A stretch of 64,000 nt of DNA from a virus (taxonomy: Duplodnaviria; Caudoviricetes), in IMG/VR virus record IMGVR_UViG_3300028048_000060, positions 32,001 to 96,000 of that record. One strand, written 5' to 3'. Both the position numbers and the translations under genes were made by a program. Below are positions 10,622-27,414 of the stretch, piece after piece. Within the stretch, counting starts at the first letter, position 1, and each line of letters begins with the position of its first letter. The notes under the pieces are model-generated. The model saw nothing but the letters and a program-made list of their open reading frames with translations, was not told the origin of the DNA and did not search any database.

Positions 10622-10629
10622 TATAAATA
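10622..10629 (+). promoter_or_regulatory. T4-type late promoter TATAAATA
   Basis: Exact consensus upstream of capsid gene. Confidence 0.8.
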
Positions 10630-10659
10630 AATTAAAACTAATAAAAAGGAGAAGCCAAT

Positions 10660-12042: not shown

Positions 12043-12087
12043 TTTTAGGTATTTTAAGTAACTAGATTATCTTATAAACAACGTTTA

Positions 12088-12115
12088 AATACCCTCTTAA
12101 TTGAGGGTATTTTTA
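12088..12115 (+). terminator. Intrinsic terminator after capsid gene
   Basis: aaataccctc-ttaatt-gagggtattt followed by T run. Confidence 0.8.
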
Positions 12116-12177
12116 TGTCTTGAAAGTCTCCATAAAATCATATATAATTACAATAATATAAACTAATAGGATAATAT

Positions 12178-13896
12178 ATGATAAACGAAGAATATCTAAA
12201 CACTCCCTCACGTAAACTTCCCAAAGATAAACGCTCGTTCAACGAGTTTATATACACTGAAGTCTTTAAACAGAATGATATCTCATTGTCTGATTTTCTT
12301 TATAAAGTAAGCACCTTATGGAAGACTGAGAAGTTTAACTGTTTTCTAAAATACATTCAAACAGTTGAAGATTTAGAGTATAAGAACACTGACTTTAGAT
12401 TTGTAAGTGCGTATTATCGTAAGTGCCTTTATATCTGCCCAGGTTGTGGAAAAGAATCACTCACAAGGTATTGTAGTCAGAAGTGTTCTAATGTAGACCC
12501 TGAAGTTAAGAAAAAGAAAGCACAGACATCACTAAAACACTTTGGAGTTCCTAATCCAGGTCAGTCTGAACAAGTAAGGGAGAAAATTAAAGAAACATCA
12601 ATAAAACACTTTGGGGTTCAGTGTTCGTTTCAAGCAGAGTCTGTTAAAAATAAAATGAAGGAAACGAGTCTTCGAAAGTTCGGTGTAGAACATCCTATGA
12701 AGTCGGATATCGTTAAAGAGCATCAAAAAGAATCTATAAGAGAACGATTAGGTGTAGATTATCCTATGCATTCTAAGGAGGTTCGTGAAAAATCGAAGAA
12801 GACTTGTTTAGGAAAATACGGAGAAGAGAATGTCGCTAAGTCAGATTACTTTAAAGAAAAGCTATTTAATACTAACTTTAATAAGCATCACAAGAATATT
12901 CAAGACTTTAACCATGAGTTTATAAGAGAGAACTTCATAGAAGACTGTAAGTTCAAGATTCAAGAGTTTGAGGATTACTTCGGGATAAACTCACGTGTAG
13001 TAGCTAATCGTTTTAAAAGAAAACTTGGAATCCTTGAGCAGAATAATGATAGTTATATAGACCAGGGATATTCAAAAGAAGAAAAGGAACTCTTCGAATG
13101 GATTCCAACAGAAAATAAAGTATGTAATATAAGGTCTATTATAAATCCGTTGGAATTGGATATGTATCTTCCTGATTATAAACTTGCGATAGAATATGAT
13201 GGTGCCTATTATCACTCAGAACAGTTTAAACCCGAAGGCTATCATATTTTTAAGACATCAGAGTGTGAGAAACATGGAATTCAGCTATTACACATCTTCG
13301 ATTTTGAAGATATCGAGATATGGAAGTCTATAATATCAGGAAAGTTAAAGAAGAATACTAAAATCTTTGCAAGAAAATGCACAGTAAAGGAATTATCCTT
13401 CAATGAAGCAAAAATGTTCTTAGAGGAAAATCACCTACAAGGTTCCTGTCCTTCAAAGTACAGATATGGATTATTCTATAACGGAGAATTAGTCCAAGTA
13501 ATGACGTTTGGAGTTCCTAGGTTTAATAAACGGTATGACTTCGAGTTATTAAGATTAGCTTCTAAGAAGTTTACCTCCGTAGTAGGTGGCGCGTCAAAAC
13601 TCTTGAAATTCTTTAGAGATTCTCACACTGGGTCTATTATATCCTATGCCAATCGAAGGTTCTCTTTAGGTGATGTTTATAGAAAACTAGGGTTTAGACA
13701 ACTCGGGATAACTAATGTAAACTATTTTTATGCAGGGCATAACGAGGTTCTTACTCGATACCAGTGTCAAAAACATAAACTCAAAGACCTTTTAGAGAAC
13801 TTTGACCCGTCTAAGACAGAGTCAGAGAATATGAGACTAAACGGATATTTTAAAGTCTTCGATTGTGGAAATCTTATATTCTCGCTAATAGCATAA
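12178..13896 (+). CDS. Free-standing homing endonuclease, Hef-like (PD-(D/E)xK/DUF559-type core)
   Basis: CPGCG..YCSQKC zinc ribbon, K.T.L.K(F/Y)GV repeats, ELDMYLP..KLAIEYDG.YYHS, IFARKC, VVGGASKLLK. Confidence 0.8.
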   Translation: MINEEYLNTPSRKLPKDKRSFNEFIYTEVFKQNDISLSDFLYKVSTLWKTEKFNCFLKYIQTVEDLEYKNTDFRFVSAYYRKCLYICPGCGKESLTRYCSQKCSNVDPEVKKKKAQTSLKHFGVPNPGQSEQVREKIKETSIKHFGVQCSFQAESVKNKMKETSLRKFGVEHPMKSDIVKEHQKESIRERLGVDYPMHSKEVREKSKKTCLGKYGEENVAKSDYFKEKLFNTNFNKHHKNIQDFNHEFIRENFIEDCKFKIQEFEDYFGINSRVVANRFKRKLGILEQNNDSYIDQGYSKEEKELFEWIPTENKVCNIRSIINPLELDMYLPDYKLAIEYDGAYYHSEQFKPEGYHIFKTSECEKHGIQLLHIFDFEDIEIWKSIISGKLKKNTKIFARKCTVKELSFNEAKMFLEENHLQGSCPSKYRYGLFYNGELVQVMTFGVPRFNKRYDFELLRLASKKFTSVVGGASKLLKFFRDSHTGSIISYANRRFSLGDVYRKLGFRQLGITNVNYFYAGHNEVLTRYQCQKHKLKDLLENFDPSKTESENMRLNGYFKVFDCGNLIFSLIA

Positions 13897-13924
13897 TAGT
13901 CTAGTAGCATAATCAAATAAATTT

Positions 13925-13952
13925 AAGCCCTTAGTTTTCTAAGGGCTTTTAT
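13925..13952 (+). terminator. Intrinsic terminator
   Basis: aagcccttag/ctaagggctt stem followed by T run. Confidence 0.75.
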
Positions 13953-14035
13953 TTTCTCTCAGAATATCTAAAATTTTTATTCTGTATCTTTATATAAAGA
14001 ACTAAGATTTAAACTTTAATGTCTTTAAAACATCT

Positions 14036-14086
14036 TTTGTCTTTAAACAAAAATCCTTTGAAGTTCTAAGATATATAAAATATAAT
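14036..14086 (+). promoter_or_regulatory. Early sigma70 promoter with degenerate palindromic box
   Basis: TTTGTCTTTAAACAAAA, then TTGAAG-N17-TATAAT. Confidence 0.6.
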
Positions 14087-14107
14087 AAATAAAACGATTT
14101 AAATGAA

Positions 14108-15031
14108 ATGGAGAATATAATGAATTTTTTAAACTACCCTGAAGTTGATATTGCACGAAGAAACCTAGACAAAGAAATTGAGTTAATTTGGACTGGATTT
14201 AGAACCTGTTACTCTAACAAAGTTAACTATGACGATATGTATCCATTTAAACTTGATTTCTCAACAACTGAATTAAAAGAAAAATCTTATTCTATTATTA
14301 AAGACATAAAGAATTTTTACATAAAAGAACTTTGTAAGACCTTTGGTGAACTCAAAGAAATTTCTAAAAGGTTCAACTACAGTGTTCCTGGATATATTGA
14401 ACATTTTACACAGGAAAACCTAGAACTGTTCTTCGACTCAGAAGTGTCTGCATTAGGACAGGCAATCTCAGAAGGGACTGTGTGTCTTAATGAAAAGGCT
14501 AAAGAAGGATATGAGTTTCTTAGAAGTATCTTAGCATGTAAGTGGGTCTATCCAAAGTTAAGAATAGGTCATGGAAGTCCTTTAGAACATGGTGTTATTT
14601 CATTTAAGGTTAAGAATTGTTCCAGAAGTCTCACACATCAGTTGGTAAGACACAGAGTAGCTTCCTATTCACAGTCATCACAAAGATATATCTCAGAGGA
14701 CCCTGATAACTTAGAGTTTGTTATTCCTAAGGAAATCCAGGGTAATCCAGAAGCACTAAAGATTGTAGAAGAATACCTGGAAAATCTAAGTTCCTCTATA
14801 AAGAAATTAAAAGAATTAAAAGTAAGAAATGAGGATATAAGATGTATTTATCCAAATGCTATTACAACTGATATCCAAGTCACAATGAACTTCAGAGAAC
14901 TAAGACACTTTATTGGTCTTAGATTGTCTAAACATGCACAGGATGAAATCAGAAAAGTTGCTTTTGACTTATTGTGTTATATGTGTCTAAGTGTTCCTTT
15001 TGTATTTGCTGACCTAACAGAAGTAGAATAA
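14108..15031 (+). CDS. thyX: Flavin-dependent thymidylate synthase
   Basis: GHGSPLEH, SRSLTHQLVRHRVASYSQSSQRY, MNFREL..F..LR, AQDEIR. Confidence 0.95.
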   Translation: MENIMNFLNYPEVDIARRNLDKEIELIWTGFRTCYSNKVNYDDMYPFKLDFSTTELKEKSYSIIKDIKNFYIKELCKTFGELKEISKRFNYSVPGYIEHFTQENLELFFDSEVSALGQAISEGTVCLNEKAKEGYEFLRSILACKWVYPKLRIGHGSPLEHGVISFKVKNCSRSLTHQLVRHRVASYSQSSQRYISEDPDNLEFVIPKEIQGNPEALKIVEEYLENLSSSIKKLKELKVRNEDIRCIYPNAITTDIQVTMNFRELRHFIGLRLSKHAQDEIRKVAFDLLCYMCLSVPFVFADLTEVE

Positions 15032-15050
15032 TCTATTAATCTATATCCCT

Positions 15051-15078
15051 AAAGGTCTCCTAAATGGAGGCCTTTTCT
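15051..15078 (+). terminator. Intrinsic terminator
   Basis: aaaggtctcc-taaat-ggaggccttt followed by T run. Confidence 0.7.
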
Positions 15079-15223
15079 TTATTAATCAATTTAAAGCATT
15101 TTAAAATCATTATCTTTATATAATAAACCAAGATTTAAATGCTTAAATGCTCTAAAGCCCCAAGCCTGTTCTGAATGTTATATAAAGTTTGTCCATCCAG
15201 TGTGCTCAAATAGTATAGATAAA

Positions 15224-15275
15224 TTTGGGTTAAACCCAAAAATATCTTGATATTAAACTCAAAATATATTATAAT
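15224..15275 (+). promoter_or_regulatory. Early promoter repeat (palindromic box plus -35/-10)
   Basis: TTTGGGTTAAACCCAAA; TTGATA-N17-TATAAT. Confidence 0.85.
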
Positions 15276-15307
15276 ATTAAACATAAAGAGATTAAGGAGT
15301 AAAGACT

Positions 15308-15526
15308 ATGAGAGCAAAAATAGTTAGAGACTGGCTTAACGAAACAGCATTTACAAGATGTTTAAAGGCTAAATTTTTCCGTATAGTTAGGTCTGATGGT
15401 AAACAGTTGTATGACCAACTTGAAGCAAGGAAGTATCCCGAATTTATACATATTACACCTGTTCTAAGAATGGAAGTAACAAATATCGAAGAAATAGAGG
15501 AATATTTTATTGTCACTGTAAAGTGA
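15308..15526 (+). CDS. Hypothetical early protein
   Basis: RBS AGGAG after early promoter. Confidence 0.7.
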   Translation: MRAKIVRDWLNETAFTRCLKAKFFRIVRSDGKQLYDQLEARKYPEFIHITPVLRMEVTNIEEIEEYFIVTVK

Positions 15527-15552
15527 TTTATAGGATTACAGGAGTAAAGACT

Positions 15553-15900
15553 ATGAGAAACGATAATTACAAGAGTTTTATCCCAACCAGAATGCCTAAT
15601 GGCTTACCTTATGAGTTTAAGTTCCATCACCTGCTTGACTTCGCAGACTATGGTGGTAAAATCAAGAACATCAAAGAATGCTTCAATAACATCTTAGAAG
15701 ACAACAAGTTTGACATTAAAGCACTCGCAGAACTGTATGTAGCTCTAAATGTCAGAATATGGTTCCACTATGAGAATGGTAACGAAAGATTTGCTAGACT
15801 TTACAACGAGTTCTTCTGCAAAGTAAAGAGATACGTTTACTCTAAGAAAGCCAATTTCTCACAGGAAGACTTAGATTATTTCTTTGATTTCACAGATTAG
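15553..15900 (+). CDS. Conserved phage hypothetical protein
   Basis: Start moved to ATG with AGGAG RBS; L.EL..ALN.RIW.HY...LY and YFF..TD motifs. Confidence 0.7.
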   Translation: MRNDNYKSFIPTRMPNGLPYEFKFHHLLDFADYGGKIKNIKECFNNILEDNKFDIKALAELYVALNVRIWFHYENGNERFARLYNEFFCKVKRYVYSKKANFSQEDLDYFFDFTD

Positions 15901-15950
15901 TGATTAACAATACAAGAGGGACTCTCAGAGCCCCTCTAAAAGGAGATTTT

Positions 15951-16484
15951 ATGTGCAAAATAGACAAAACTAAGATTTACTCAGTTATTGATATTATTAA
16001 AGGAAATTTCGACACAGACTCTGATGCCTTTTCAAAAGGATACTTTACAAACGACCTAGAGTCACTTAGTGGAGATCCTGCCGAATTCGTAGCAAAAGCA
16101 CAATTCCGCAAATTAGAGAACACAACCCTTTGTGATTATGCTTTTAGAGCATCAGATGGAAAATGGTACAAGTACTTTGTTCCTGAGGATGGCGTAGAGT
16201 TAGAAAACACTCCTAAGTCTAAGGACTTTATTACTCTTAGAGACTTTCTAAGAATCTTTGATTCGAACCTAAGGTCTAAGAGACGAATAGAAGTCTTTGT
16301 TTGGGATGACAAAGAATACGATGGTCTCATCTCAGACATTCCTGAGGATTCCACATACTTAGATGGTGAAGTGATAAATTTCAGCACTTACATAGATGAT
16401 GGATTCTCCGAATGTGGAGAAAGGAACTATGACAAAAGAACACTTACACTTGAGCCAGTGTTGACAGTATTCATAGAAGACTAA
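15951..16484 (+). CDS. Hypothetical protein, LDKRI-family N-domain fused to a small domain
   Basis: Start moved to ATG after AGGAG; IDK, GYF, KYFVPE motifs. Confidence 0.65.
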   Translation: MCKIDKTKIYSVIDIIKGNFDTDSDAFSKGYFTNDLESLSGDPAEFVAKAQFRKLENTTLCDYAFRASDGKWYKYFVPEDGVELENTPKSKDFITLRDFLRIFDSNLRSKRRIEVFVWDDKEYDGLISDIPEDSTYLDGEVINFSTYIDDGFSECGERNYDKRTLTLEPVLTVFIED

Positions 16485-16529
16485 CAGAGAACTATTTAGG
16501 GAAAATATGAAATAGGCTATTAGGTTATT

Positions 16530-16730
16530 ATGACATTAGATGATTTTTTAAAGACTAAAATGTTATCTGTTTTTAACGATATAAACATTTACTTAAATGG
16601 TGAACTTGTATTATCAGGCGTAGATGTTTATACTGTCTCACTGAATTCTAAGTATGATATCTATAAAAGCTATGTTGTTATAACAGCACAAGAAAACTTC
16701 AGTGAACTTTCAATCTTTTTGAGTTTTTAG
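16530..16730 (+). CDS. Small hypothetical protein (MTL..FL family)
   Basis: ORF track; resembles other ~65 aa paralogs. Confidence 0.6.
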   Translation: MTLDDFLKTKMLSVFNDINIYLNGELVLSGVDVYTVSLNSKYDIYKSYVVITAQENFSELSIFLSF

Positions 16731-16743
16731 TGGTAAATAAAAA

Positions 16744-16796
16744 TTTGTCTTTAACTAAAATTTTTCCTTGAATTTAACCCCAAAATACATTATAAT
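16744..16796 (+). promoter_or_regulatory. Early promoter repeat
   Basis: TTTGTCTTTAACTAAAA; TTGAAT-N17-TATAAT. Confidence 0.85.
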
Positions 16797-16830
16797 AATA
16801 AACATAAAGAGATAGCAATGGAGAACAGAT

Positions 16831-18138
16831 ATGATTTTAGAAATCTTAGAACAACTCAGAAATACAACCTCTACTAAAGAGAAGTTTAATATCCTTTTAA
16901 GTCATAAAGACAACAAGGAATTAGAAAAGGTCTTAAAGTACACCTACGACAAGGTAAACTTTACTTATGGTGTAACTTCAAAGACTGTCTTGGACTTTGA
17001 TTCCAACGAATACTCAGACAAAGAAATGTTCGAAGTCTTAGATATTCTTAACAGAAGAGAAGTAACAGGTCATAGTGCATTAGCATTAGCAAAGAACTTC
17101 TATGTTTCATGTGATAAGACAATTAAGGATTTATTCCTTAAAATCTTAGACAGAGACTTAAAGATTGGTGTCAATGAAAAGACTTTGAATAAGGTCTTTA
17201 AGGGAATTGTTCCAAAACCTTTCTACTGCAGATGTGGCCTACTCTCAGAAAAGACTTTAAAGAAGTTTGTATTTCCTGGATATATCCAGTTAAAGTGTGA
17301 TGGTACTTACAGAGAAGCATACGTCCACAATGGCATTGTAGAGTTTAAGACTCGTTCAGGTGAGTCTTACAAGAACCCAGTCTTAGAAGAAATTCTGAAG
17401 ACTCTTCCTGATGGATACTACTTAGGTGAGTTTACCTTAGGAAGGGCGGATAATCCTGATGCTAACAGAGCAGAAGGAAACGGAAACATTAACTCAGATA
17501 ATCCTGACTATAACAACATCCACTTCACAGTTTGGGACTGTCTAACTGAAGATGAATACGCCTTAAAGGATTCTAAGAGAAACTATGACGAACGTCTTAT
17601 TGATATGCGTTTAAATATCGAAAGACTCAATTCACCATTAGTCCAGGTCGTCCCAAGTCTTAAGGTTTACGACATTGAAGATGCTTTAAAGGCTACTTCA
17701 GACTGGATGAACAAAGGACTTGAAGGTGGTGTTCTTAAGTCATTTAACATGAAGTTCAAGAATGGAACTTCTAAAGAACAGTTAAAGATTAAGTTAAAAG
17801 TCGATGTTGAAGTTAGATGTACTGGATTCTTAGAAGGAACTAAGGGAACTAAGTACGAGGGAAAGAACAAGGTTATTACTTTCGAAAATGACGAAGGAAC
17901 TATCAAAGGACAGTGTTCAGGAATGACTGACTCTATGGTAGATGAGGTCACTAAGAATCCTGAAAAGTATATTGGTAAGGTTCTGAGTGTTCAGTTTAAT
18001 GACTTGACCAAAGCAGAAGGCCACGAATTCTATGCATTAAGCCATCCAAGATTTATGGAGTGGAGGGACGATAAGGACGAAACTGACACTCTTGAAAAGG
18101 CTATTCAGTTAAGAGATATGGCGAGAGGATTAAAGTAA
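16831..18138 (+). CDS. ATP-dependent DNA ligase, gp30-like
   Basis: KCDG adenylation motif, GE, F.VWD, EGGVLK, KIKLK, HPRF..WR.DK. Confidence 0.93.
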   Translation: MILEILEQLRNTTSTKEKFNILLSHKDNKELEKVLKYTYDKVNFTYGVTSKTVLDFDSNEYSDKEMFEVLDILNRREVTGHSALALAKNFYVSCDKTIKDLFLKILDRDLKIGVNEKTLNKVFKGIVPKPFYCRCGLLSEKTLKKFVFPGYIQLKCDGTYREAYVHNGIVEFKTRSGESYKNPVLEEILKTLPDGYYLGEFTLGRADNPDANRAEGNGNINSDNPDYNNIHFTVWDCLTEDEYALKDSKRNYDERLIDMRLNIERLNSPLVQVVPSLKVYDIEDALKATSDWMNKGLEGGVLKSFNMKFKNGTSKEQLKIKLKVDVEVRCTGFLEGTKGTKYEGKNKVITFENDEGTIKGQCSGMTDSMVDEVTKNPEKYIGKVLSVQFNDLTKAEGHEFYALSHPRFMEWRDDKDETDTLEKAIQLRDMARGLK

Positions 18139-18147
18139 TAAGAACTT

Positions 18148-18175
18148 AAAGAGGATTTTTTAAATCCTCTTTTAT
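18148..18175 (+). terminator. Intrinsic terminator
   Basis: aaagaggattt/aaatcctcttt stem. Confidence 0.65.
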
Positions 18176-18191
18176 TATAATAGGACAATAA

Positions 18192-18686
18192 ATGAAAATT
18201 GAAGAATTATCCAAGATTGTTAGTATGTTTCAGGAAGAGACAGAAAAGGAATTTTCGAGAGTTCTGAAAGAAAAAGAAAAGGTGATTGGATGGAAGGAAG
18301 CCCTGTGTATTCTGTCTACAATGAAGAAAATGCTTGACTTTATCAAGGCACTAATTGACGAGCCAAATGATGAAGACCCTGATTCCTTAACTGTCTCTGT
18401 TAATCCTGAAAGCAAAGTAGCAACAATTAGGACTCCTGGAAGATACAAAGACCAAGATACTACCCTTATAGTTCGTGTCTCAGAGGCTCCTGTCCCTGCT
18501 CCTGGTGAATTTAAGTTTGATTTTAAGATAGAATACCTCCACACTGAAGGTCAAGAAGAAGTGCTTCAGGAGACATTTTTCTGTTGTAAACCTTTCTGGT
18601 ATCTAGTACAACACGAGCAAGATAAACTGAAAAGATTTAAAGAAGACAACGCTGAGAACCCTTTAGAATGGAGTAACAGATTATGA
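18192..18686 (+). CDS. Hypothetical protein
   Basis: ORF with RBS. Confidence 0.65.
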   Translation: MKIEELSKIVSMFQEETEKEFSRVLKEKEKVIGWKEALCILSTMKKMLDFIKALIDEPNDEDPDSLTVSVNPESKVATIRTPGRYKDQDTTLIVRVSEAPVPAPGEFKFDFKIEYLHTEGQEEVLQETFFCCKPFWYLVQHEQDKLKRFKEDNAENPLEWSNRL

Positions 18687-18868
18687 TAGTAGCAGAAGTT
18701 TTAGCCAAGTCATCACCTAGAAAGGTGATTCATATTATCGACGATAGTGGTGAAAGTTTCTTTTGCGGAATGGTAAAGGACTGCCCGGTTGAACTCTATG
18801 GTCTAGAAGTCTACGACACTGCTAGATGGTTTGTAAGAGTTAAGTCAGTAAAGCATGAGGGATTTTAA
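18683..18868 (+). CDS. Small hypothetical protein, paralog of 36748
   Basis: L.KS.P...I....G...F.G.V.D.P pattern shared. Confidence 0.6.
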   Translation: MIVAEVLAKSSPRKVIHIIDDSGESFFCGMVKDCPVELYGLEVYDTARWFVRVKSVKHEGF

Positions 18869-18952
18869 CACTGACATCATTCAAATGTTCTCAAAAAGAG
18901 TTAAAGCATTAAAGATTATTTGTTTAATTATTATAAGACATAAGGATTTAAA

Positions 18953-19204
18953 ATGAATCTTGAAGGAACTCTTAATACACTTTCTCAGTTACAGTGCAGA
19001 ACAAATATCTATTCTATTTGTGTCCAGGAGATAATTGGCTTTGGAAAGTTCAGGACTGTCTTAGAAGAAAAGTTTATTAAGAGCATTAAAGAAAACAAAG
19101 ACTTTAATAAGTATAAGTCTTATCATACTAAAGAAATTCAGTTTTTATCTGGGAAGTGTTATATCTATATTATAGACAGATCAAATCTGTTTAAATTTGA
19201 ATAA
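18953..19204 (+). CDS. Hypothetical protein
   Basis: ORF with RBS. Confidence 0.55.
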   Translation: MNLEGTLNTLSQLQCRTNIYSICVQEIIGFGKFRTVLEEKFIKSIKENKDFNKYKSYHTKEIQFLSGKCYIYIIDRSNLFKFE

Positions 19205-19222
19205 TTAAGGAGTCAAACCTAG

Positions 19223-19444
19223 ATGACTGTTGAAGAACTTATCAAAGAGTTACAAAAGATTGAAAATAAGAAAAGTTGTGTTAAGGTAGCTATTAATCCT
19301 TATGGCTTCCTAAAATACGAGGCTATTCGTGATGTAAGAGTAGCTGATGATAAGGAAAAGGAGACAGTCATTCACCAACAGAATTTACGACACTTTACAG
19401 ATAATGGCTATGTAGTCATTGAAGGTGGAGGAAGGGGCGAATGA
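19223..19444 (+). CDS. Hypothetical protein (MTV.ELI..L family)
   Basis: N-terminal helix shared with 22356, 27598, 44945, 47537. Confidence 0.65.
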   Translation: MTVEELIKELQKIENKKSCVKVAINPYGFLKYEAIRDVRVADDKEKETVIHQQNLRHFTDNGYVVIEGGGRGE

Positions 19445-19752
19445 AAGAACTGAAAGACCTTATTATAAGCAAAGACATAACACAAAAAATGTCAGTATCA
19501 GAAATGAAGAAACTTGATAACCAATATGGTTGGTTTGCTGACGACACTAAAGAATTTGAAGACTTAGGTTTGTGCCCGTATGATTCGCTCGATATTTCAG
19601 TACATGATGGGTCTCTAAGACTCTACTCGACCCATAATGAGTGGAAATATTTTCTTCCTGTTAAGAACTTACAGAGGTACCTAAATATGCTTGTAGGATT
19701 AAAGGAAGTCCAAAATATACAGATTAACGCTTTAATGTCAGGGAGGTTATAA
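19441..19752 (+). CDS. Hypothetical protein, divergent LDKRI family
   Basis: GWF...F.DL and KYFLP motifs. Confidence 0.6.
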   Translation: MKELKDLIISKDITQKMSVSEMKKLDNQYGWFADDTKEFEDLGLCPYDSLDISVHDGSLRLYSTHNEWKYFLPVKNLQRYLNMLVGLKEVQNIQINALMSGRL

Positions 19753-19753
19753 G

Positions 19754-19996
19754 GTGTATTATTTTTATGAAATATCTGAAGAAGAATATAAAGAACTTTT
19801 AAGAGACTCTAAGATATTAGAAGTTCTAAAAGAACGAGGTGTTGAGAACTGGGATGGCTATGAAGATGCCATAAAGGAAAATGAGGAATACATTAACGAC
19901 TATGATGACATCCTGGATGAAATGCCAATAAGAATAGGTTATGATATTAACTTAGAATGGATAAAGAATACAGAAGCTATGAAAAATACTAGATAA
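19754..19996 (+). CDS. Hypothetical protein, paralog of 44540
   Basis: ISEE...L...L..L...G..NWDGY motif. Confidence 0.65.
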   Translation: MYYFYEISEEEYKELLRDSKILEVLKERGVENWDGYEDAIKENEEYINDYDDILDEMPIRIGYDINLEWIKNTEAMKNTR

Positions 19997-20008
19997 CGAG
20001 GTATAATA

Positions 20009-20293
20009 ATGTTTTTATTCAAGAAAAAGCAGAACAGTGTTAAAATTGTTAATGAGGATAGGATGACTCTTGATGAGTGGTTAAAGAGTAACATGAACGT
20101 CCCTCATTATCTGTATGTCTTTACTAGAGTTGAAGAAAAGGATACATATGAGTTTAAGTTTAGAAGTTTACCATCTTCAATTTCGTTAGAAGACTACTTA
20201 AAGTATAAAGATTATATTATAGATAATTGCTATGTTATATTGAGATACGGTGATTCAACTGAGATTAACATGTTTTTATCAGATAAAGTTTAG
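20009..20293 (+). CDS. Hypothetical protein
   Basis: ORF with RBS. Confidence 0.55.
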   Translation: MFLFKKKQNSVKIVNEDRMTLDEWLKSNMNVPHYLYVFTRVEEKDTYEFKFRSLPSSISLEDYLKYKDYIIDNCYVILRYGDSTEINMFLSDKV

Positions 20294-20380
20294 AGTCCTA
20301 ATATAGGCCTAAAAATTATACAAGCAACAAATAATTTTTATATTCATAAGAGAAGACTTTGTCTTCTCTTCCAAAAATTT

Positions 20381-20434
20381 TTTGACTTTAACTCAAAAAA
20401 AATCCTTGATTTTTCTTTTAAAGTCCTTTATAAT
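20381..20434 (+). promoter_or_regulatory. Early promoter repeat driving the RtcB-NAD transcript
   Basis: TTTGACTTTAACTCAAA; TTGATT-N17-TATAAT; preceded by hairpin 20348-20370. Confidence 0.85.
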
Positions 20435-20461
20435 AATAAACATAAAGAAAGGAGCAAAGAT

Positions 20462-21556
20462 ATGATTTTAAAAGGAAAGTTCAATCAAGCATTTATTCAT
20501 GCTGAAACTATAGAACCTCAGGTTATCAACCAAATCAAGGAATTCTTAAACACTGATTTATCAGAAGGTTCTACTATCCACATTATGCCTGACACACACT
20601 CAGGGAAGGGTTGTGTAGTAGGTTTCACAATGACTATCTTAGATAAGTTATGCCCTAACTTAGTGGGTGTTGACGTGGGTTGTAACATGACTTGTATCAA
20701 GCTTCCAAAGGACACTAAGGTTCTTCCTGAAGTCTTCTTAGAAGCATGTAAGAAGATTCCAAATGGCGTTGGTTCAAATGCTGGAAGACCTCCTAAGTTT
20801 GTAGATGTAGATTCTATAGGTTTAGATAAACTGACTTTTGAACTTAATCATACTGAAACTGTGATTAACTCAATAGGTTCACTGGGTTCAGGAAACCATT
20901 TCATTGAACTTAATGAAGATAAGGAAACTGGAGACCATTATATTGTTGTTCATACAGGTTCTCGTAACTTAGGACAACAGGTTTGTGGTTATCATATGCG
21001 AGTAGCAAAGACTGACCACTCACGTGGAGACCTGTCTTATCTTACAGGACTCAACTTAGATAACTACTTACATGATATGAAGATATGTCAAAACTATGCG
21101 TTGTCTAACCACAAGGAGATTTACTCTAAGTTATTAGAACTTTTAGGTGTGAGACTCTGTAAGACAGAAGTTTTTACTACTATGCACAACTACATAGACT
21201 TCAATGACCATATTCTTCGTAAAGGTGCTATCTCTTGTCAAGAAGGGAAGAAAGTTTTAATTCCTTTTAACATGCGAGATGGTTCTGTGATTGGTGTAGG
21301 TAAGGGAAATCCTGAATGGAACTTCTCAGGTCCTCACGGTGCAGGTCGTATTCTGTCAAGAACTCAAGCAAAGCAGTTAATCACCTTAGAAGACTTTAAG
21401 GAGTCAATGAAGGGAATAACAGGAACTATTTGTCAAGAAACTATTGATGAAGCACCAATGGTTTATAAGAAAGCAGAAGAAATTGAACGCTTAATCTCAG
21501 AAACTGTAGAAGTGACTAATCACTTAAAGGTATTAGCTAACTTTAAGGGATTTTAG
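20462..21556 (+). CDS. rtcB: RtcB RNA ligase
   Basis: MPDTH.G.G, VGVDVGC, GSLGSGNHFIE, HTGSR, HNY, RKGA, SGPHGAGR, DEAP.VYK. Confidence 0.95.
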   Translation: MILKGKFNQAFIHAETIEPQVINQIKEFLNTDLSEGSTIHIMPDTHSGKGCVVGFTMTILDKLCPNLVGVDVGCNMTCIKLPKDTKVLPEVFLEACKKIPNGVGSNAGRPPKFVDVDSIGLDKLTFELNHTETVINSIGSLGSGNHFIELNEDKETGDHYIVVHTGSRNLGQQVCGYHMRVAKTDHSRGDLSYLTGLNLDNYLHDMKICQNYALSNHKEIYSKLLELLGVRLCKTEVFTTMHNYIDFNDHILRKGAISCQEGKKVLIPFNMRDGSVIGVGKGNPEWNFSGPHGAGRILSRTQAKQLITLEDFKESMKGITGTICQETIDEAPMVYKKAEEIERLISETVEVTNHLKVLANFKGF

Positions 21557-21571
21557 GAGAAGACAGGCGGT

Positions 21572-22093
21572 ATGATATTAGATAAGAGAATTTTGAAAGG
21601 AAAGACTTACTTAGACTGTTTTGACACAGAAGAAGCAAAACAGTTCATTGGGAAGAAGTGTTATTTCACTAGAGACTTATCAAGGTTTGAAAATCTGGAT
21701 GGTCCAGGAGTGTATAAAGTCACTTTAACTGATATTTCGGACCACTATGAAGTGTGTTATGGTTCTGATGAACTCGGGATTCAGCAGTGGGACTATGCAC
21801 GCTTTATTATCCCTTGTGAATGGGTAAAGGGGGCGATTGAAAAGAAGTACAGACCTTACAAAGATGTAGAAGAATTCTTTGATGATGTAGGATGTACTCT
21901 AGGCGATGTTATTCGTTTTAGGAAAAGGGATACTACCGAAGAGGAATACCACACTTTATTGACCGGCTTCAAAGGAAATGCAAGAGTCAATATAGGTCTA
22001 GGTGATGGAGGTTATTATAGTTTAAATGACTTATTCAGCTTATTTGAGTTATATACAGCAGATGGTTGGAAACCTTTTGGAATTGAGGAGTAA
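21572..22093 (+). CDS. LDKRI-family paralog (two-domain)
   Basis: LDKRI, KYRPY, WKPFG motifs. Confidence 0.75.
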   Translation: MILDKRILKGKTYLDCFDTEEAKQFIGKKCYFTRDLSRFENLDGPGVYKVTLTDISDHYEVCYGSDELGIQQWDYARFIIPCEWVKGAIEKKYRPYKDVEEFFDDVGCTLGDVIRFRKRDTTEEEYHTLLTGFKGNARVNIGLGDGGYYSLNDLFSLFELYTADGWKPFGIEE

Positions 22094-22109
22094 AGGGTGA
22101 AATACGAAG

Positions 22110-22355
22110 ATGCTAGAACAGGATATTAAATATTGTACAGAGAGTCTCCCTGTAAGAGTAGGTGATTTACTCTATCTTTTCAGTGACGGATATGGTCACG
22201 TAAATTATAATGTAGAAATAACCGATGGAGATGCTACTGTAACGTTTGAGGATTTTCCTGAGTTATCTGAGGAAATATCTAATTATGATAACTGTATTGT
22301 TACACATGCTTATTTTGAAGATTGTTGGCTATGTATACATGTTAAGGAACTGTAA
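22110..22355 (+). CDS. Hypothetical protein
   Basis: ORF track; tightly packed. Confidence 0.6.
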   Translation: MLEQDIKYCTESLPVRVGDLLYLFSDGYGHVNYNVEITDGDATVTFEDFPELSEEISNYDNCIVTHAYFEDCWLCIHVKEL

Positions 22356-22529
22356 ATGACTATTAGTGAAATGATTGAAGAACTTGAGAAAATCAAAGAA
22401 GAGCATGGAGACTTACCTGTTAAGACTTGGGAATATGACTCGTTGTATGAGGAATATTATTTAGATGAAGCGAATTATCCTGAATATTATAGCTCCAGTG
22501 ATGAAGAATGTGTTGTAATAGGACAATAA
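22356..22529 (+). CDS. Small protein missed by ORF track (MTISEMIEELEKIKEEHGDLPV..., 57 aa)
   Basis: Manually translated; exactly fills the gap; HGD.PV family paralog. Confidence 0.7.
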   Translation: MTISEMIEELEKIKEEHGDLPVKTWEYDSLYEEYYLDEANYPEYYSSSDEECVVIGQ

Positions 22530-23123
22530 ATGAAACTCAATTATATTAAAGAACTTTTTAAAGGCAAATTTTTAGGTCTTTATATAGCAAACTATACTTC
22601 AAATGAAGGAAGAAACAAGGATTATGAGATTATTTCTAGACCCTTAGAGTCTAAAGATGACTTAATGGAAAATGCAAATCCTGACGCAGTAACTATTATA
22701 TGCTATAACAAAGACAGAACTAAGATGCTCATTCAGAAGGAATTTAGAATGACTATCAACGACTTTGTTTGGGACTTTCCTTCAGGTCTTATTGACGAAG
22801 GCGAAACTCCTGATGAAACAGCCATCAGGGAACTCAAGGAAGAGACAGGTCTTGACCTAGTCAAATTTGAAGCTATCTTACCTCCTTGCTATACAAGTGT
22901 AGGGATGTCAAATGAAACAGTAGTCCCAGTTTACTGTATAGCAGAGGGGCAGATTACAGGTTCAGATAGTGACCTGGAAGAAACAGAACCTGTTTGGATT
23001 TCTAAGGAAGAAGCAAGAGCACTTCTTGAAAAGAGTGTTCTTTCAGCTAAGAAGGGAAGACCTTTTATCAGATTTTCAAACAGGGTTTCATCTGAAATTT
23101 ATAGATGGGTATTTGAAGATTAG
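22530..23123 (+). CDS. Nudix hydrolase, ADP-ribose pyrophosphatase-like
   Basis: Nudix box GLIDEGETPDETAIRELKEETGL; EFR and YTS.GMS.E motifs. Confidence 0.85.
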   Translation: MKLNYIKELFKGKFLGLYIANYTSNEGRNKDYEIISRPLESKDDLMENANPDAVTIICYNKDRTKMLIQKEFRMTINDFVWDFPSGLIDEGETPDETAIRELKEETGLDLVKFEAILPPCYTSVGMSNETVVPVYCIAEGQITGSDSDLEETEPVWISKEEARALLEKSVLSAKKGRPFIRFSNRVSSEIYRWVFED

Positions 23124-23133
23124 GAGAATAACA

Positions 23134-23715
23134 GTGGTTAAGAAAGATATTTTGATTGTTGTTGATATGCAGAATGATTTTATCGACGGAGCACTTGGAA
23201 CTCCTGAGGCTAAGATGATTGTTCCAAATGTCATTGAAAAGATTAAGTCTTATAATAATGTTGATAGTTTCGTATTCGCTACTAGGGATACTCATGATGA
23301 AAATTATTTAGAGACTGAAGAAGGCAAGAATCTTCCTGTTAAGCACTGTGTTCCGTCTCTTTCTGGTTGGTGTATTCATGACGATGTTTATGATGCCCTC
23401 CTGGGATTGGACGAGGAAGTTTATACTTATTATATAAACAAACCTACATTTGGTGCACTCGAGTTAAGTGCAAAACTCAGACAATTAAGTATACTCTATG
23501 ATATTGAAAACATAGAAGTTATTGGTCTTTGTACTGATATCTGTGTTATTAGTAATGCTATAATTGCTAAGTCTGCTCTTCCAAATGCCCATATCAAAGT
23601 AGATGCTTCCTGTTGTGCAGGTGTAACTCCTGAGTCTCACAATAGAGCATTAGATTCAATGCAGACCCTTCAGATAGAGATTGTAAACAGAGGAAAGGAA
23701 CCTTGGATAAAGTAG
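23134..23715 (+). CDS. pncA: Nicotinamidase
   Basis: VVDMQNDF, DTH, HC...GW, K, GLCTDICV; start moved to GTG after AGGAG. Confidence 0.88.
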   Translation: MVKKDILIVVDMQNDFIDGALGTPEAKMIVPNVIEKIKSYNNVDSFVFATRDTHDENYLETEEGKNLPVKHCVPSLSGWCIHDDVYDALLGLDEEVYTYYINKPTFGALELSAKLRQLSILYDIENIEVIGLCTDICVISNAIIAKSALPNAHIKVDASCCAGVTPESHNRALDSMQTLQIEIVNRGKEPWIK

Positions 23716-24203
23716 GGATAGTATTTGGATGCTTTATTCCACTTCATAAAGGACATCTAAGTCTTGTAGATAAAGCACTTAAAAATGACAAAGTCATCAT
23801 TGGAGTTTGTGGTTATGACTTAGACAGAGGTAAGGATTTTATTCCATTTAAAGACAGAGTAGAACTTATCAAAGAAATCTTTAACGATTTAACTGTTGTC
23901 TCTGTAGATGACCACAAAATTGGACTCACAGGAAAGTTTGACTTAGAATCCTGGAAAGTATGGTGTAATGAACTGTTTAAGAATGCAGATTTAGACCCAT
24001 TAGAAAATGAAATTGCATGGTATCTAGGAGAACAGAGTTATCTTGAAATGCTCAAAACGATATATCCTAAGCATACTTTTGAGTTAGTCGAAAGAGCAGT
24101 TATTCCAGTTTCAGGAACTATGATAAGAGAAAATCCAAAGGAAAATATCAAAGAAATTCATCCAGTGTTTATAGAATATCTAAAAGAAAAGAATATTATC
24201 TAA
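23703..24203 (+). CDS. NadR/NadM-like (Na)MN adenylyltransferase
   Basis: G.F.PLHKGH (HxGH) and VSGTMIRENP; NAD operon context. Confidence 0.8.
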   Translation: MDKVGIVFGCFIPLHKGHLSLVDKALKNDKVIIGVCGYDLDRGKDFIPFKDRVELIKEIFNDLTVVSVDDHKIGLTGKFDLESWKVWCNELFKNADLDPLENEIAWYLGEQSYLEMLKTIYPKHTFELVERAVIPVSGTMIRENPKENIKEIHPVFIEYLKEKNII

Positions 24204-24219
24204 GGAAAAGGAGAAGGGA

Positions 24220-25449
24220 ATGAAATTTGAACCTATTATTAAGTCACTTTTAGAAACTGACCTCTACAAGTTCTCAATGGGTCAGGCAATTTTCCATAAT
24301 GCATCTAAGTACAAGACTACTTGGTCTTTTAAGTGCAGAAACAAAGACGTAAAGTTCACCTTAGAGATGGTCCAGGAAATCAAAGAGCAGATTAAAGCAT
24401 TTTGTAATCTTAGATTTACTGAAGATGAACTGAACTATCTTAAAAGTATCTCATGGTTAGATGAATCTTATATAGACTATCTTCATAACTTTGCCCCTAA
24501 TTTTAAGCATATCTTTATTGGAATGGACTCAGAGTGTGGCCTGTCAGTTGAGACAAAAGGAACTTGGTTAGAGACATCAATGTATGAAATTCCAATCTTA
24601 GCTATTGTAAATGAAGTGTACTTCAGGTCTCAGGATAACTTTGACGAGTTACTTAAAGAGTCTAAGAGAAGAACAGACCAGAAGTTTGAGGACTTAGTAA
24701 GCAACAAGTATTATCTATCAGCATTCTCTGAATTTGGTCTTAGAAGAAGACTTTGTGCAGAAGCACAGGAGTATGTTGTTAAGAAGTTTATCTATCTTAA
24801 TAAGACTATGTCTAAGTCAACTTTTGTTGGAACTTCAAATGTATACTTAGCTAAGAAGTACTCTGAGTTTGGTGTAAGACCAGTTGGCACAATGGCACAT
24901 GAGTGGATTATGTGTATGGGACAGGGGACATTTGGAGTAGACCCTTTAACATCAAATGACTATGCTTTAAAGGTTTGGGTTAAGGAGTATGGGAAGAAGA
25001 ATGGTATTGCTCTGACTGATACTTTAGGGACTAAGTTGTTTAATTTAGACTTTAGTGATGCTTTAGCTTCAGTGTTTGATGGAGTAAGACATGACTCAGG
25101 AGACCCTATCAAGTGGGGTGAAATGGAAATTGAACATTTTAAGAGTCTTGGAATAGACCCATTAACTAAGACTTTGCTGTTCTCAGACTCACTCGACTTT
25201 GAACGAGCAGATATGATAGCTAATCACTTTGAGAACAAAGCAAAGGTAGCATTTGGGATTGGAACATTTTTATCAAATGATACATGCATGAAACCTCTTA
25301 ATATTGTAATGAAGGTAACAGAATGTAATGGTAAGGATGTAGCTAAGATATCAGATTCTGAAGGAAAGGGAATGTGTAAGAATCCTGAGTATGTAGACTG
25401 GTTGAAGAAAGGAATTAGCCTTAGACTAATGTACTCTGAGAAGGATTAG
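24220..25449 (+). CDS. pncB: Nicotinate phosphoribosyltransferase
   Basis: TDLYK, SEFGLRRR, GTSNV, GTMAHEW, LTDT, GVRHDSGDP, FSDSL, FGIGT, KISD. Confidence 0.95.
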   Translation: MKFEPIIKSLLETDLYKFSMGQAIFHNASKYKTTWSFKCRNKDVKFTLEMVQEIKEQIKAFCNLRFTEDELNYLKSISWLDESYIDYLHNFAPNFKHIFIGMDSECGLSVETKGTWLETSMYEIPILAIVNEVYFRSQDNFDELLKESKRRTDQKFEDLVSNKYYLSAFSEFGLRRRLCAEAQEYVVKKFIYLNKTMSKSTFVGTSNVYLAKKYSEFGVRPVGTMAHEWIMCMGQGTFGVDPLTSNDYALKVWVKEYGKKNGIALTDTLGTKLFNLDFSDALASVFDGVRHDSGDPIKWGEMEIEHFKSLGIDPLTKTLLFSDSLDFERADMIANHFENKAKVAFGIGTFLSNDTCMKPLNIVMKVTECNGKDVAKISDSEGKGMCKNPEYVDWLKKGISLRLMYSEKD

Positions 25450-25542
25450 AACATCTTTAAATGTTTTAAAATATCTTAAATCTTATATATAAACATCATT
25501 TTAATCCAGTCATTTTTAGACTGGATTTTTTAAGGAGTAACT

Positions 25543-26313
25543 ATGAATACATTTAATCCAAAAGAAGAAAAAGAACGAATCATTAACTTTATCAGAGACT
25601 GGTTCAGTGAAAATGGTCCTAAGGCAAGTGCTGTTATAGGAATCTCAGGAGGAAAGGACTCTACCATAGCAAGTACCCTGTGTGTAGAAGCATTGGGAAA
25701 AGACAGGGTGATTGGAGTCTTAATGCCTAATGGAGTTCAGAAAGACATTGAAGATGCTCTGAGAGTAGTAAAGCATCTTGGTATTAGATATAAAGTAGTT
25801 AATATCAATAATCCTTATAATGAGATGTTAAATGCTCTGACTGCCAACAGTTCTTTTGACTTTGAAATCACAGATGCTTTAAAACAGAATCTTGCTCCAA
25901 GACTCAGAATGGCTACACTGTATGCTGTGGCGCAGGGAGTTCCAGAAGGTGGAAGAGTAATCAATACTTGCAATGCTTCTGAAGACTATGTGGGATACAG
26001 TACTAAGTTTGGTGACAGTGCTGGAGACATTGGTCCTTTAGCTTCATATACTGTTGGCGAAGTAATTCAGATTGGAGACTTACTGGATATCCCTAAGGAC
26101 TTGGTCCATAAGACTCCATCAGATGGATTATGCGGTAAAACAGACGAAGATAACTTGGGATTTACATACAGTGTCTTAGACAAGTACATTATGACTGGAG
26201 TATGCGAAGACCCTAAGGTAAAGGAAAACATAGACAGAAGACACAGACTGAATCTGCATAAGGTTTGTCCGCTTCCAGTTATTGAAAGAATATTTGAAAG
26301 AACACTAATTTAA
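25543..26313 (+). CDS. nadE: NH3-dependent NAD+ synthetase
   Basis: GISGGKDS, N..PRLRM, N.SE..VGYSTKFGD, K.PSDGL..TDED.LG. Confidence 0.95.
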   Translation: MNTFNPKEEKERIINFIRDWFSENGPKASAVIGISGGKDSTIASTLCVEALGKDRVIGVLMPNGVQKDIEDALRVVKHLGIRYKVVNINNPYNEMLNALTANSSFDFEITDALKQNLAPRLRMATLYAVAQGVPEGGRVINTCNASEDYVGYSTKFGDSAGDIGPLASYTVGEVIQIGDLLDIPKDLVHKTPSDGLCGKTDEDNLGFTYSVLDKYIMTGVCEDPKVKENIDRRHRLNLHKVCPLPVIERIFERTLI

Positions 26314-26456
26314 ATTATATTATATAAGAGACAATGATTTTTTTATGTCTCTTTTTCATCTAAGGGGTCATTTTGGCCCCTTTCTTAATTTCCAAAATCC
26401 AAGCAAGCACTTAAAAGAGTCTCATCTTCGAATTATATTAAACTATCAAAAGGAAA

Positions 26457-26464
26457 TATAAATA
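26457..26464 (+). promoter_or_regulatory. T4-type late promoter TATAAATA
   Basis: Exact consensus upstream of DUF285 gene. Confidence 0.7.
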
Positions 26465-26505: not shown

Positions 26506-27414
26506 ATGAAATTCAAACAAATCATCAACGAAGGTTCTGAGTCTAAGACAGAACTTCCTGAAAGAGTAAAGCCTAAGAACAACGAAGAGTTCAAGAAAAT
26601 GGTCAGAAACTACATTTCTGTATACAACAAACAGGTAGGGCCTACAGGAAACTTAAACTTCATCGACACGTCTGATATTACTGATATGAGTGGCCTTTTC
26701 GAAGACTGTGACAGGTTCTGGGGCGATATTTCTGAATGGGATACATCTAAAGTAACAGATATGCATAACATGTTCAACTGTTGTTCATTTAATGGTGATA
26801 TCTCTAAGTGGGATGTAAGCAATGTAAGAGATATGAGTTTAATGTTCGCATATGGCTCTTTTAATGGTGATATCTCTAAGTGGAATGTTTCTAAAGTAGA
26901 TAATATGGGTGGAATGTTTAAGAGAAGCAAATTTAATGGAGACCTGAGTCGGTGGAATGTGTCTAAAGTAACGAATATGCACCAGATGTTCCAGAAGTCC
27001 AAGTTTAATGGTGATATCTCCAAGTGGAATGTTTCTAGAGTGGAAAATATGGGCGGAATGTTCGAAGAATCAGCCTTTGCAGGTGATATCTCTAAGTGGG
27101 ATGTTTCTAATGTAGAGAATATGGCTTTTATGTTTAGGAGAAGTCCATTTAATGGAGACCTTAGTAAGTGGGATGTAAGTAATGTCACAAGCATGACCTA
27201 TATGTTTGAAAGATCTGCATTTACAGGCTCTAAGGGCGACATCACTAACTGGGATACTTCCAGTGTGACAGATGTATCCTGTATGTTTGCTTATACTAAG
27301 TTTAATCAGGATGTGTCAAATTGGGATGTATCTAAGGTAAAGGGAGATGATGCTTTGTGGGCCTTTGAAGGATGTCCATTAGAAGGTAAAATCACATTTA
27401 TGAGATTTAAGTGA
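26506..27414 (+). CDS. BspA/DUF285-type repeat protein
   Basis: About 9 units of ~24 aa, FNGDISKW(D/N)VS.V..M..MF. Confidence 0.9.
   Translation: MKFKQIINEGSESKTELPERVKPKNNEEFKKMVRNYISVYNKQVGPTGNLNFIDTSDITDMSGLFEDCDRFWGDISEWDTSKVTDMHNMFNCCSFNGDISKWDVSNVRDMSLMFAYGSFNGDISKWNVSKVDNMGGMFKRSKFNGDLSRWNVSKVTNMHQMFQKSKFNGDISKWNVSRVENMGGMFEESAFAGDISKWDVSNVENMAFMFRRSPFNGDLSKWDVSNVTSMTYMFERSAFTGSKGDITNWDTSSVTDVSCMFAYTKFNQDVSNWDVSKVKGDDALWAFEGCPLEGKITFMRFK

Follow-up and report, generated by a model that had tools for sequence, protein, structure and literature searches.

A probable deamidating NAD+ salvage unit with a predicted ADP-ribose pyrophosphatase in a T4-like phage of the ruminant gut

Introduction

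How might a phage keep nicotinamide adenine dinucleotide (NAD+) available in a host whose defenses destroy it? NAD+ depletion is a widespread bacterial defense, and three phage pathways that rebuild NAD+, none of them deamidating, have been shown to defeat it. These are NARP1, NARP2 and NARP3, by which NAD+ rebuilding overcomes the NAD+-cleaving enzymes (NADases) of the host (10.1101/2024.02.11.579819; PMC13464706); NARP3 consists of PnuC and the NadR-like protein Bas30_86 (PMC13464706). Earlier overviews had put forward phage NAD+ salvage as a means to offset NADases (PMC9503650). A 2024 survey of jumbo phages of the animal gut counted 174 phages in which a salvage or Preiss-Handler pathway is complete, and also described a pncB-nadD-nadE cluster and phage pncA (PMC11662467). 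Here we consider a stretch of 64,000 nucleotides (the window), bases 32001-96000 of the 154.7-kb IMG/VR virus record IMGVR_UViG_3300028048_000060, in which adjacent genes encode a Nudix hydrolase, PncA, an adenylyltransferase, PncB and NadE. Do these genes form a further means of rebuilding NAD+, and one that uses both products of NADase cleavage? We conclude, at a probability of about 0.6, that the five genes are a phage-borne NAD+ recycling module, by which NAD+ would be kept available during infection and both nicotinamide and ADP-ribose (ADPR) would be recycled.

The five genes and their products

The five genes lie tightly packed on the plus strand (window positions 22530-26313; Table 1), separated in order by 10, -13, 16 and 93 nt, and their catalytic motifs are intact. 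An earlier sequence-only reading of this locus had described just such a contiguous set, and profile matches and motifs bear out all five. The set is far beyond chance, because the same genes recur together in many viral and bacterial loci.

Table 1. Features of the NAD unit and its immediate surroundings, by position in the window
Feature	Position	Strand	Remarks
RtcB RNA ligase gene and three small open reading frames	20462-22529		upstream of the NAD module
ADP-ribose pyrophosphatase-type Nudix hydrolase, 197 aa	22530..23123	+	NUDT5/NudF family, without DNA-binding domain
Nicotinamidase PncA, 193 aa	23134..23715	+	GTG start behind AGGAG
Stand-alone NadR-type N(a)MN adenylyltransferase domain, 166 aa	23703..24203	+	TTG start, 13-nt overlap with the end of PncA
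Nicotinate phosphoribosyltransferase PncB, 409 aa	24220..25449	+	PF17767 and PF04095
9-bp hairpin, then U-run	25503..25531	+	in the 93-nt PncB-NadE spacer
NH3-dependent NAD synthetase NadE, short single-domain form, 256 aa	25543..26313	+	PF02540, TIGR00552
Two terminator-like hairpins with U-runs	26326..26382	+	after NadE, end of the unit; z -2.96
DUF285 repeat protein gene	26506-27414		downstream of the NAD module

PncA matches PF00857 (1e-20) and, weakly, NF008623. Its longest open reading frame (ORF) starts at 22969, within the Nudix gene; the true start is most likely the GTG listed in Table 1, which AGGAG precedes. In that form the protein aligns end to end with its closest PDB entry, Pyrococcus horikoshii PncA (1ILW, 3e-16), and has the Asp/Lys/Cys catalytic triad and the Asp-His-His metal site (D-x-H...H) of a nicotinamidase. 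PncB scores above the curated cut-offs of two families, NF003704 (453 bits, cut-off 379) and TIGR01514 (392 bits, cut-off 269.55), matches PDB 1YIR at 7e-83 and conserves the histidine of GTMAHEW. NadE matches PF02540 (6e-53) and TIGR00552 (169 bits, cut-off 63.65), with the SGGKDS motif of an NAD synthetase; three proteins (P0001-P0003) are 90-97% identical to it.

The third gene requires a correction. It had been described as an adenylyltransferase with an HxGH motif, and this part stands, as the protein matches PF01467 and has the motifs HKGH and SGTMIR, but it is of NadR type, not a NadD. Assignment as NadD was ruled out by a TIGR00482 score of 27.7 bits, far below the cut-off of 112, together with matches to TIGR01526 (nadR_NMN_Atrans, 1.6e-21) and to Lactococcus lactis NadR (PDB 6GYE, 3.6e-22), its closest PDB entry, over the NMNAT domain only. 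The NadR kinase (RNK) domain is absent from the protein. A second PF01467 (HIGH nucleotidyltransferase) match in the record lies outside the window, at G000:C1:124642-124938 on the minus strand, in a 650-aa ORF.

A predicted ADP-ribose pyrophosphatase linked to NAD genes in phages

What does the first gene encode? The Nudix protein matches PF00293 (6e-18), its sole domain, and has a perfect GX5EX7REUXEEXGU box. By sequence its closest PDB entries are human NUDT5 and bacterial ADP-ribose pyrophosphatases (ADPRases), in alignments that include the N-terminal domain. An AlphaFold (AF2) model built on 52 homologues, with a mean confidence score (pLDDT) of 94.8, gave only ADPRases as top Foldseek matches, with full-length template-modeling (TM) scores of 0.79-0.82 to NUDT5. 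Thus the Nudix box, the N-terminal dimerization/adenine-binding domain and the ADPRase fold are all present. The likeness to NUDT5, NudF and Mt-ADPRase (TM about 0.8) covers box, N-terminal beta domain and fold, and extends to aromatic and arginine residues: F12, Y32, R37 and R72 align opposite W28, W46, R51 and R84 of NUDT5, which we take to be ADPR contacts. The phage protein is, however, only 24-25% identical to NUDT5, and has valine in place of the proline 15 residues past the box that is presumably typical of ADPRases. Its identity to enzyme-type homologues is 33-49%. The winged-helix domain of NrtR regulators (NrtR_WHD, PF21906) was not found in it. Sequence and modeled fold support its assignment as an ADPRase of the NUDT5/NudF type, and with it the earlier proposal that the enzyme acts on ADPR.

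Might the main substrate be another one? The enzyme could instead act on ADPR-derived immune signals, NAD-capped RNA, NAD(H) or oxidized nucleotides, in which case the gene would be an independent counter-defense or housekeeping gene that merely sits beside the salvage genes. Some phages are known to encode enzymes that break down signals based on ADPR (10.64898/2026.05.28.727677). NUDT5-type enzymes also take other ADP-sugars and 8-oxo-dGDP, to judge from the titles of PDB entries, and T4 NudE.1 is active on FAD, Ap3A and ADPR, going by the reference list of PMC9503650. We nonetheless think a different main substrate improbable: the matches to ADPRases, in both sequence and fold, run the full length of the protein, N-terminal domain included, and take in the residues that stand opposite the ADPR contacts of NUDT5, and the linkage to NAD genes is seen again in several gene orders.

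PncBs related to that of the present phage are encoded, in PncB-NadE clusters, on at least 148 IMG/VR contigs. ORFs were classified with iterated profiles in 80 viral and 160 bacterial loci, the viral ones being the best 80 of the at least 148, at 63-67% identity. Among these 80 the order PncA>DUF5662>PncB>NadD>NadE accounts for 51 and PncB>NadE>ADPRase for 14, a NadR-type enzyme takes the place of NadD in 13, and PncA is present in most of the clusters. Homologues of the ADPRase were sought in viral contigs with an alignment as query; a single-protein query yielded none. An NAD gene lies within 5 kb of 47 of 57 viral ADPRase ORFs and of 3 of 60 bacterial ones. When the ORFs are grouped at 70% identity, the ADPRase is near NAD genes in 9/14 viral and 2/48 bacterial clusters (Fisher p = 4.5e-6), a contrast that is inflated, and so indicative rather than exact, since the viral sample is drawn in part from phages related to one another, and phage sequences served as its seed. 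The bacterial homologues, at up to 49% identity, come from Bacillales, Lachnospiraceae, Fibrobacter, Treponema and Clostridium.

The gene orders around the viral ADPRases are varied: PncB>NadE>Nudix, PncA>NMNAT>PncB>NadE>Nudix (loci L033 and L269), PncB>Nudix>NadE>PncA (L265) and NMNAT>Nudix (L263 and L268). The sequence-only reading had looked to co-occurrence of the five genes in phage genomes, and all five functions do stand together again in L033 and L269, in an order that differs from that of the present unit; L265, L285 and L295 have three or four of them each within 5 kb of the ADPRase. We infer from the enrichment of this linkage in phages the strongest new support for an anti-NADase role of the unit.

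Two observations on these loci may be added. A 77-kb contig binned as an Odoribacter metagenome-assembled genome (L174) carries the phage-type set PncB>NadE>ADPRase, and is probably a phage. DUF5662 (PF18907, about 188 aa) stands between PncA and PncB in 51/80 viral loci (for example L066:5430-5996, L045, L046 and L049); it was found in 0/160 bacterial loci and is absent from the phage's own record, and a sequence search of the PDB gave no match. Its Atlas clusters are mostly viral and carry the automatic name 'putative catalase'.

Descent of the unit

Where did the unit come from? The closest cellular relatives of its NadE are those of Selenomonas ruminantium (69% identity) and then of rumen Lachnospiraceae, Butyrivibrio and Bacteroidales. 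The closest bacterial PncBs are from Lachnospiraceae, Selenomonas and Butyrivibrio, at 61-67% identity, and the nearest phage PncB, at 67%, is no closer; the NadR-type adenylyltransferase is 49-57% identical to its counterparts in bacterial operons. These operons take the forms Nudix(NrtR)>PncA>PncB>NadE, NMNAT>PncB>NadE, PncA>NMNAT>PncB>NadE (as in Butyrivibrio hungatei) and Nudix>PncA>NMNAT~PncB>NadE, so that, by gene content and order, rumen Lachnospiraceae, Butyrivibrio and Selenomonas have the PncA-(NMNAT)-PncB-NadE core as a standard operon. A tree of PncBs joins the phage protein, whose terminal branch is long, to Selenomonas and a single viral group (Shimodaira-Hasegawa-like approximate likelihood ratio support 99). 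Bacterial and viral sequences are intermingled in it, and at least 7 changes of label between the two are required. Because of this scatter, the tree indicates that host-type synthesis operons were captured by phages repeatedly, and that four of the genes here stem from operons of gut bacteria. The core is thus an operon taken over from bacteria and not one that the phage invented.

The first gene is where phage and bacteria part. The nrtR-pncA-(NMNAT)-pncB-nadE operons of Lachnospiraceae, Butyrivibrio and Selenomonas share the gene order, the orientation and the NadR-type adenylyltransferase of the phage unit. They begin, however, with the regulator NrtR, a protein of 250-280 aa with a NUDIX domain, the winged-helix domain and a Nudix box that is often degenerate, whereas the phage has a shorter ADPRase with a perfect box and no DNA-binding domain. 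Judged by domain content, then, the phage carries a predicted catalytic ADPRase at the position of the operon's NrtR repressor, and the NrtR gene is absent there.

Some viral loci carry the regulator: the first gene is NrtR also in L020, L021, L022, L025 and L063. The first four of these had been candidates for the same architecture as the phage unit and were ruled out on this ground. In L020, a member of the viral group closest by PncB, a 422-aa ORF (L020:3604-4872) lies between NrtR and PncA. The viral contigs L024 and L028 fall with the Agathobacter loci L189 and L190 in one PncB cluster of at least 88% identity, which suggests recent transfer or a prophage; all four carry NrtR~NMNAT fusions.

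Order of the reactions

Does the NadR-type enzyme act between PncB and NadE, as a pathway by way of nicotinate mononucleotide (NaMN) and nicotinate adenine dinucleotide (NaAD) would demand? NadR-family adenylyltransferases prefer nicotinamide mononucleotide (NMN) over NaMN. Among the 80 viral loci the two kinds of adenylyltransferase are mutually exclusive (NadD in 51, NadR-type in 13, both in 0). The NadR-type domain is also found fused to PncB in a single ORF of 576-578 aa, as in L125:5246-6982 (Butyrivibrio sp. MC2021, 578 aa) and in L087, L090, L231, L232, L249 and L250. Fusions of NMNAT to NadE occur in viral locus L053:11676-12917 and in metagenome protein P0083, in parallel with a NadD~NadE fusion in L137:445-1806. 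Because of this exclusivity and of the fusions to both neighbors, we place the NadR-type enzyme between PncB and NadE, where it would act as an adenylyltransferase for NaMN, or for both mononucleotides.

A different order is known from Francisella, where NadE acts as an NMN synthetase (PMC3376133). Were this the case here, NadE would convert NaMN to NMN, the NadR-type enzyme would then make NAD+ from NMN, and no NaMN adenylyltransferase would be needed. Such an order would suit the NMN preference of the NadR family and the existence of NMNAT~NadE fusions, and the top PDB match of the phage NadE is indeed F. tularensis 3FIU (133 bits), which is described as an NMN synthetase partnered with NadM. 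But P. horikoshii NadE (2E18), at 126 bits, is nearly level with it (the range for classical NadEs is 72-92 bits), and a related archaeal enzyme, that of M. jannaschii, is a genuine NAD synthetase that lacks NMN synthetase activity. The nearest homologues of the phage protein are, moreover, the ordinary NadEs of rumen bacteria. At three positions presumed to determine the Francisella specificity, NadEs show the same pattern (G, Q and a variable residue) whether their partner is NadD, a NadR-type enzyme or neither, which is a weak test. The NMNAT~PncB fusions and the exclusivity of NadD and NMNAT likewise suit the classical order better. On these comparisons the evidence leans against the Francisella order, to which we give little credence.

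What might the module do for the phage?

From the predicted activities, the five enzymes most likely carry nicotinamide through nicotinate, NaMN and NaAD to NAD+, and break ADPR into AMP and ribose-5-phosphate. PncA would convert nicotinamide to nicotinate, PncB would join nicotinate and phosphoribosyl pyrophosphate (PRPP) to give NaMN, the NadR-type enzyme would convert NaMN to NaAD, and NadE would use ammonia to turn NaAD into NAD+; the ADPRase would supply AMP and ribose-5-phosphate, and PRPP synthesis would be left to the host. The nicotinamide and ADPR to be recycled would come from host NADase defenses or from other consumers of NAD+, and the supply of NAD+ in infection would be freed from control by the host's NrtR. 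This biochemical reading is well supported by homology. Gene content, intact active sites and the pathway logic of deamidating salvage plus ADPR breakdown, as put forward from the sequence at the start, are all supported. A role against bacterial defenses that destroy NAD+ is plausible.

Might the genes simply be a general auxiliary metabolic cluster? They would then provide more NAD+ for replication in hosts reliant on salvage of niacin or nicotinamide, with no specific link to NADase defenses, and the ADPRase would merely detoxify ADP-ribose. The core is after all an ordinary host operon, NARP2 raised NAD+ without any defense system being present, and the 2024 survey takes the phage clusters as an independent NAD+ supply that complements the host's (PMC11662467). 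There is also no sign of a special need for NAD+ in the phage's own enzymes: a search of the record for an NAD-dependent ligase, an Alt-type ADP-ribosyltransferase, a Macro domain, PnuC or Prs found none, and thus no NAD+-consuming phage enzyme among the families tested. Against such a general role stand the linkage of the ADPRase, the enzyme for the second NADase product, with NAD genes in phages but not in bacteria, and the presence in most viral clusters of PncA, which is required only for nicotinamide. We consider the cluster rather unlikely to be of this general kind, though the chance is far from negligible. The auxiliary-metabolism and counter-defense roles are in any case compatible and not exclusive.

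Several points weigh against a recycling module directed at NADases, beside the sampling of viral ADPRases noted above. These enzymes are very likely present in the host too, and the benefit could then be one of general NAD+ supply and not of counter-defense. The route uses up PRPP and several molecules of ATP, and there is no phage Prs gene in the record, which is only 68% complete by CheckV. Given the NMN preference of the NadR family, the middle step, adenylylation of NaMN, may depend on the NadD of the host; two Butyrivibrio isolates with an NMNAT-PncB operon do have a canonical NadD elsewhere in the genome (as does S. ruminantium HD4). The unit may be divided in two by the hairpin and U-run that lie between PncB and NadE. 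Finally, our search of the literature turned up no paper in which a deamidating phage pathway is set against a defense system, and no 'NARP4' named in phages.

A bolder proposal is that a fourth kind of NAD+ reconstitution, which is not a unit in bacteria, has been put together by phages on repeated occasions, namely a deamidating operon stripped of NrtR and joined to a catalytic ADPRase, in which the ribose-5-phosphate of ADPR would pass to PRPP synthesis by the host and rebuilding would outrun depletion by Thoeris, DSR and SIR2-type systems. We advance this tentatively, as somewhat likelier to be wrong than right. If the recycling module works as we read it, an ordinary bacterial salvage route, one that many large phages of gut Firmicutes carry, would double as a counter-defense. 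Its pairing with an ADPRase, enriched in phages, is a testable hint as to how the second NADase product is handled, and the module is natural material on the question of whether NadR-type adenylyltransferases can replace NadD.

Relation to known pathways

How does the module compare with the phage pathways already named? The earlier reading held it to be distinct from NARP1 and NARP2, and the defining enzymes of both were not found in it. NARP1 makes use of both NADase products, as the present module would, but pyrophosphorylates ADPR and joins it directly to nicotinamide, whereas here ADPR would be split, with ribose-5-phosphate and AMP re-entering by way of the host's Prs. The parts of NARP1 (the Prs-like Adps and the Nampt-like Namat) are missing: no PF13793 match, and thus no Prs-like gene, was found in the window, as had been said, or in the whole 154.7-kb record, and the single PF04095 protein of the record is, by curated cut-offs, PncB. 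NARP2, represented by NadV and NatV of Vibrio phage KVP40, also leads from nicotinamide to NAD+ by a phosphoribosyltransferase and a HIGH-motif adenylyltransferase, but by an amidated route of two steps (nicotinamide to NMN to NAD+), without PncA, PncB or NadE. The record has no Nampt (NadV), and its NMNAT is of another subfamily. KVP40 NatV joins an NMNAT to a Nudix domain; the present module joins genes for an NMNAT and an ADPRase.

NARP3 shares with the module the NMNAT domain of the NadR family, and PDB 9X6F, which is presumably Bas30_86, matches the phage adenylyltransferase at 4.8e-5. It differs in taking up nicotinamide riboside and in its need for the RNK kinase domain; the NMNAT of the module lacks that domain, and no PnuC (PF04973) was found in the record.

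The closest precedents are the Preiss-Handler clusters of the NAD-jumbo phages (PMC11662467), which likewise combine phage-borne pncB, nadE and an adenylyltransferase gene, come from metagenomes of ruminant and other animal guts, and were proposed to supply the phage with NAD+. Phage clusters of this kind were thus already known in silico in 2024, and the module belongs with them. An unrecognized "third route", as the sequence-only reading had it, is therefore too strong a claim, in that NARP3 has already been named (PMC13464706) and pncB-nadD-nadE clusters with pncA have been reported from phages (PMC11662467). The jumbo phage clusters have the form pncB-nadD-nadE, whereas here a NadR-type enzyme stands for NadD, the unit includes PncA, and it is joined by an enzyme-type ADPRase. 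The present record is T4-like and not necessarily from a jumbo phage; both kinds of cluster are known from genes alone. What is new is the NadR-type enzyme in place of NadD, the exchange of NrtR for a predicted catalytic ADPRase, and the phage-enriched linkage of ADPRase and NAD genes.

Genomic context and expression

The source is a T4-like phage of the ruminant gut, with markers that include a baseplate wedge protein, a major head protein of phrog_138, an ATP-dependent DNA ligase and split topoisomerase II genes. Its genes lie almost all on the plus strand, and its G+C content is 0.32-0.38. Because the G+C of the NAD unit, 0.35, equals that of its surroundings, we regard the module as an integral part of the phage genome. 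Bacterial contamination or misassembly was ruled out by this match together with phage genes on the same strand at both sides. A megablast search of GenBank phages with the NAD region gave no match, and tblastn with PncB found 16 phage records only, all at about 41% identity or less over the full length.

When might the unit be expressed? A T4-type late-promoter-like motif, TATAAATA, lies at 26457-26464, after the NadE terminators and ahead of the DUF285 gene, and no motif of this type was found on the plus strand from 10622 to 26457. Because the region is without such motifs, expression of the NAD unit before the late phase is weakly suggested. Within the unit, GGAAAGGA stands before the TTG start of the adenylyltransferase. 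The spacer between PncB and NadE (25450-25545) folds at -16.5 kcal/mol (z -2.95), and its hairpin is a putative internal attenuator or terminator, by which expression of NadE may differ from that of the first four genes. Upstream, the three ORFs that follow RtcB (173, 81 and 57 aa; no Pfam match) abut the NAD module directly, and together with RtcB they may share one transcription unit with it.

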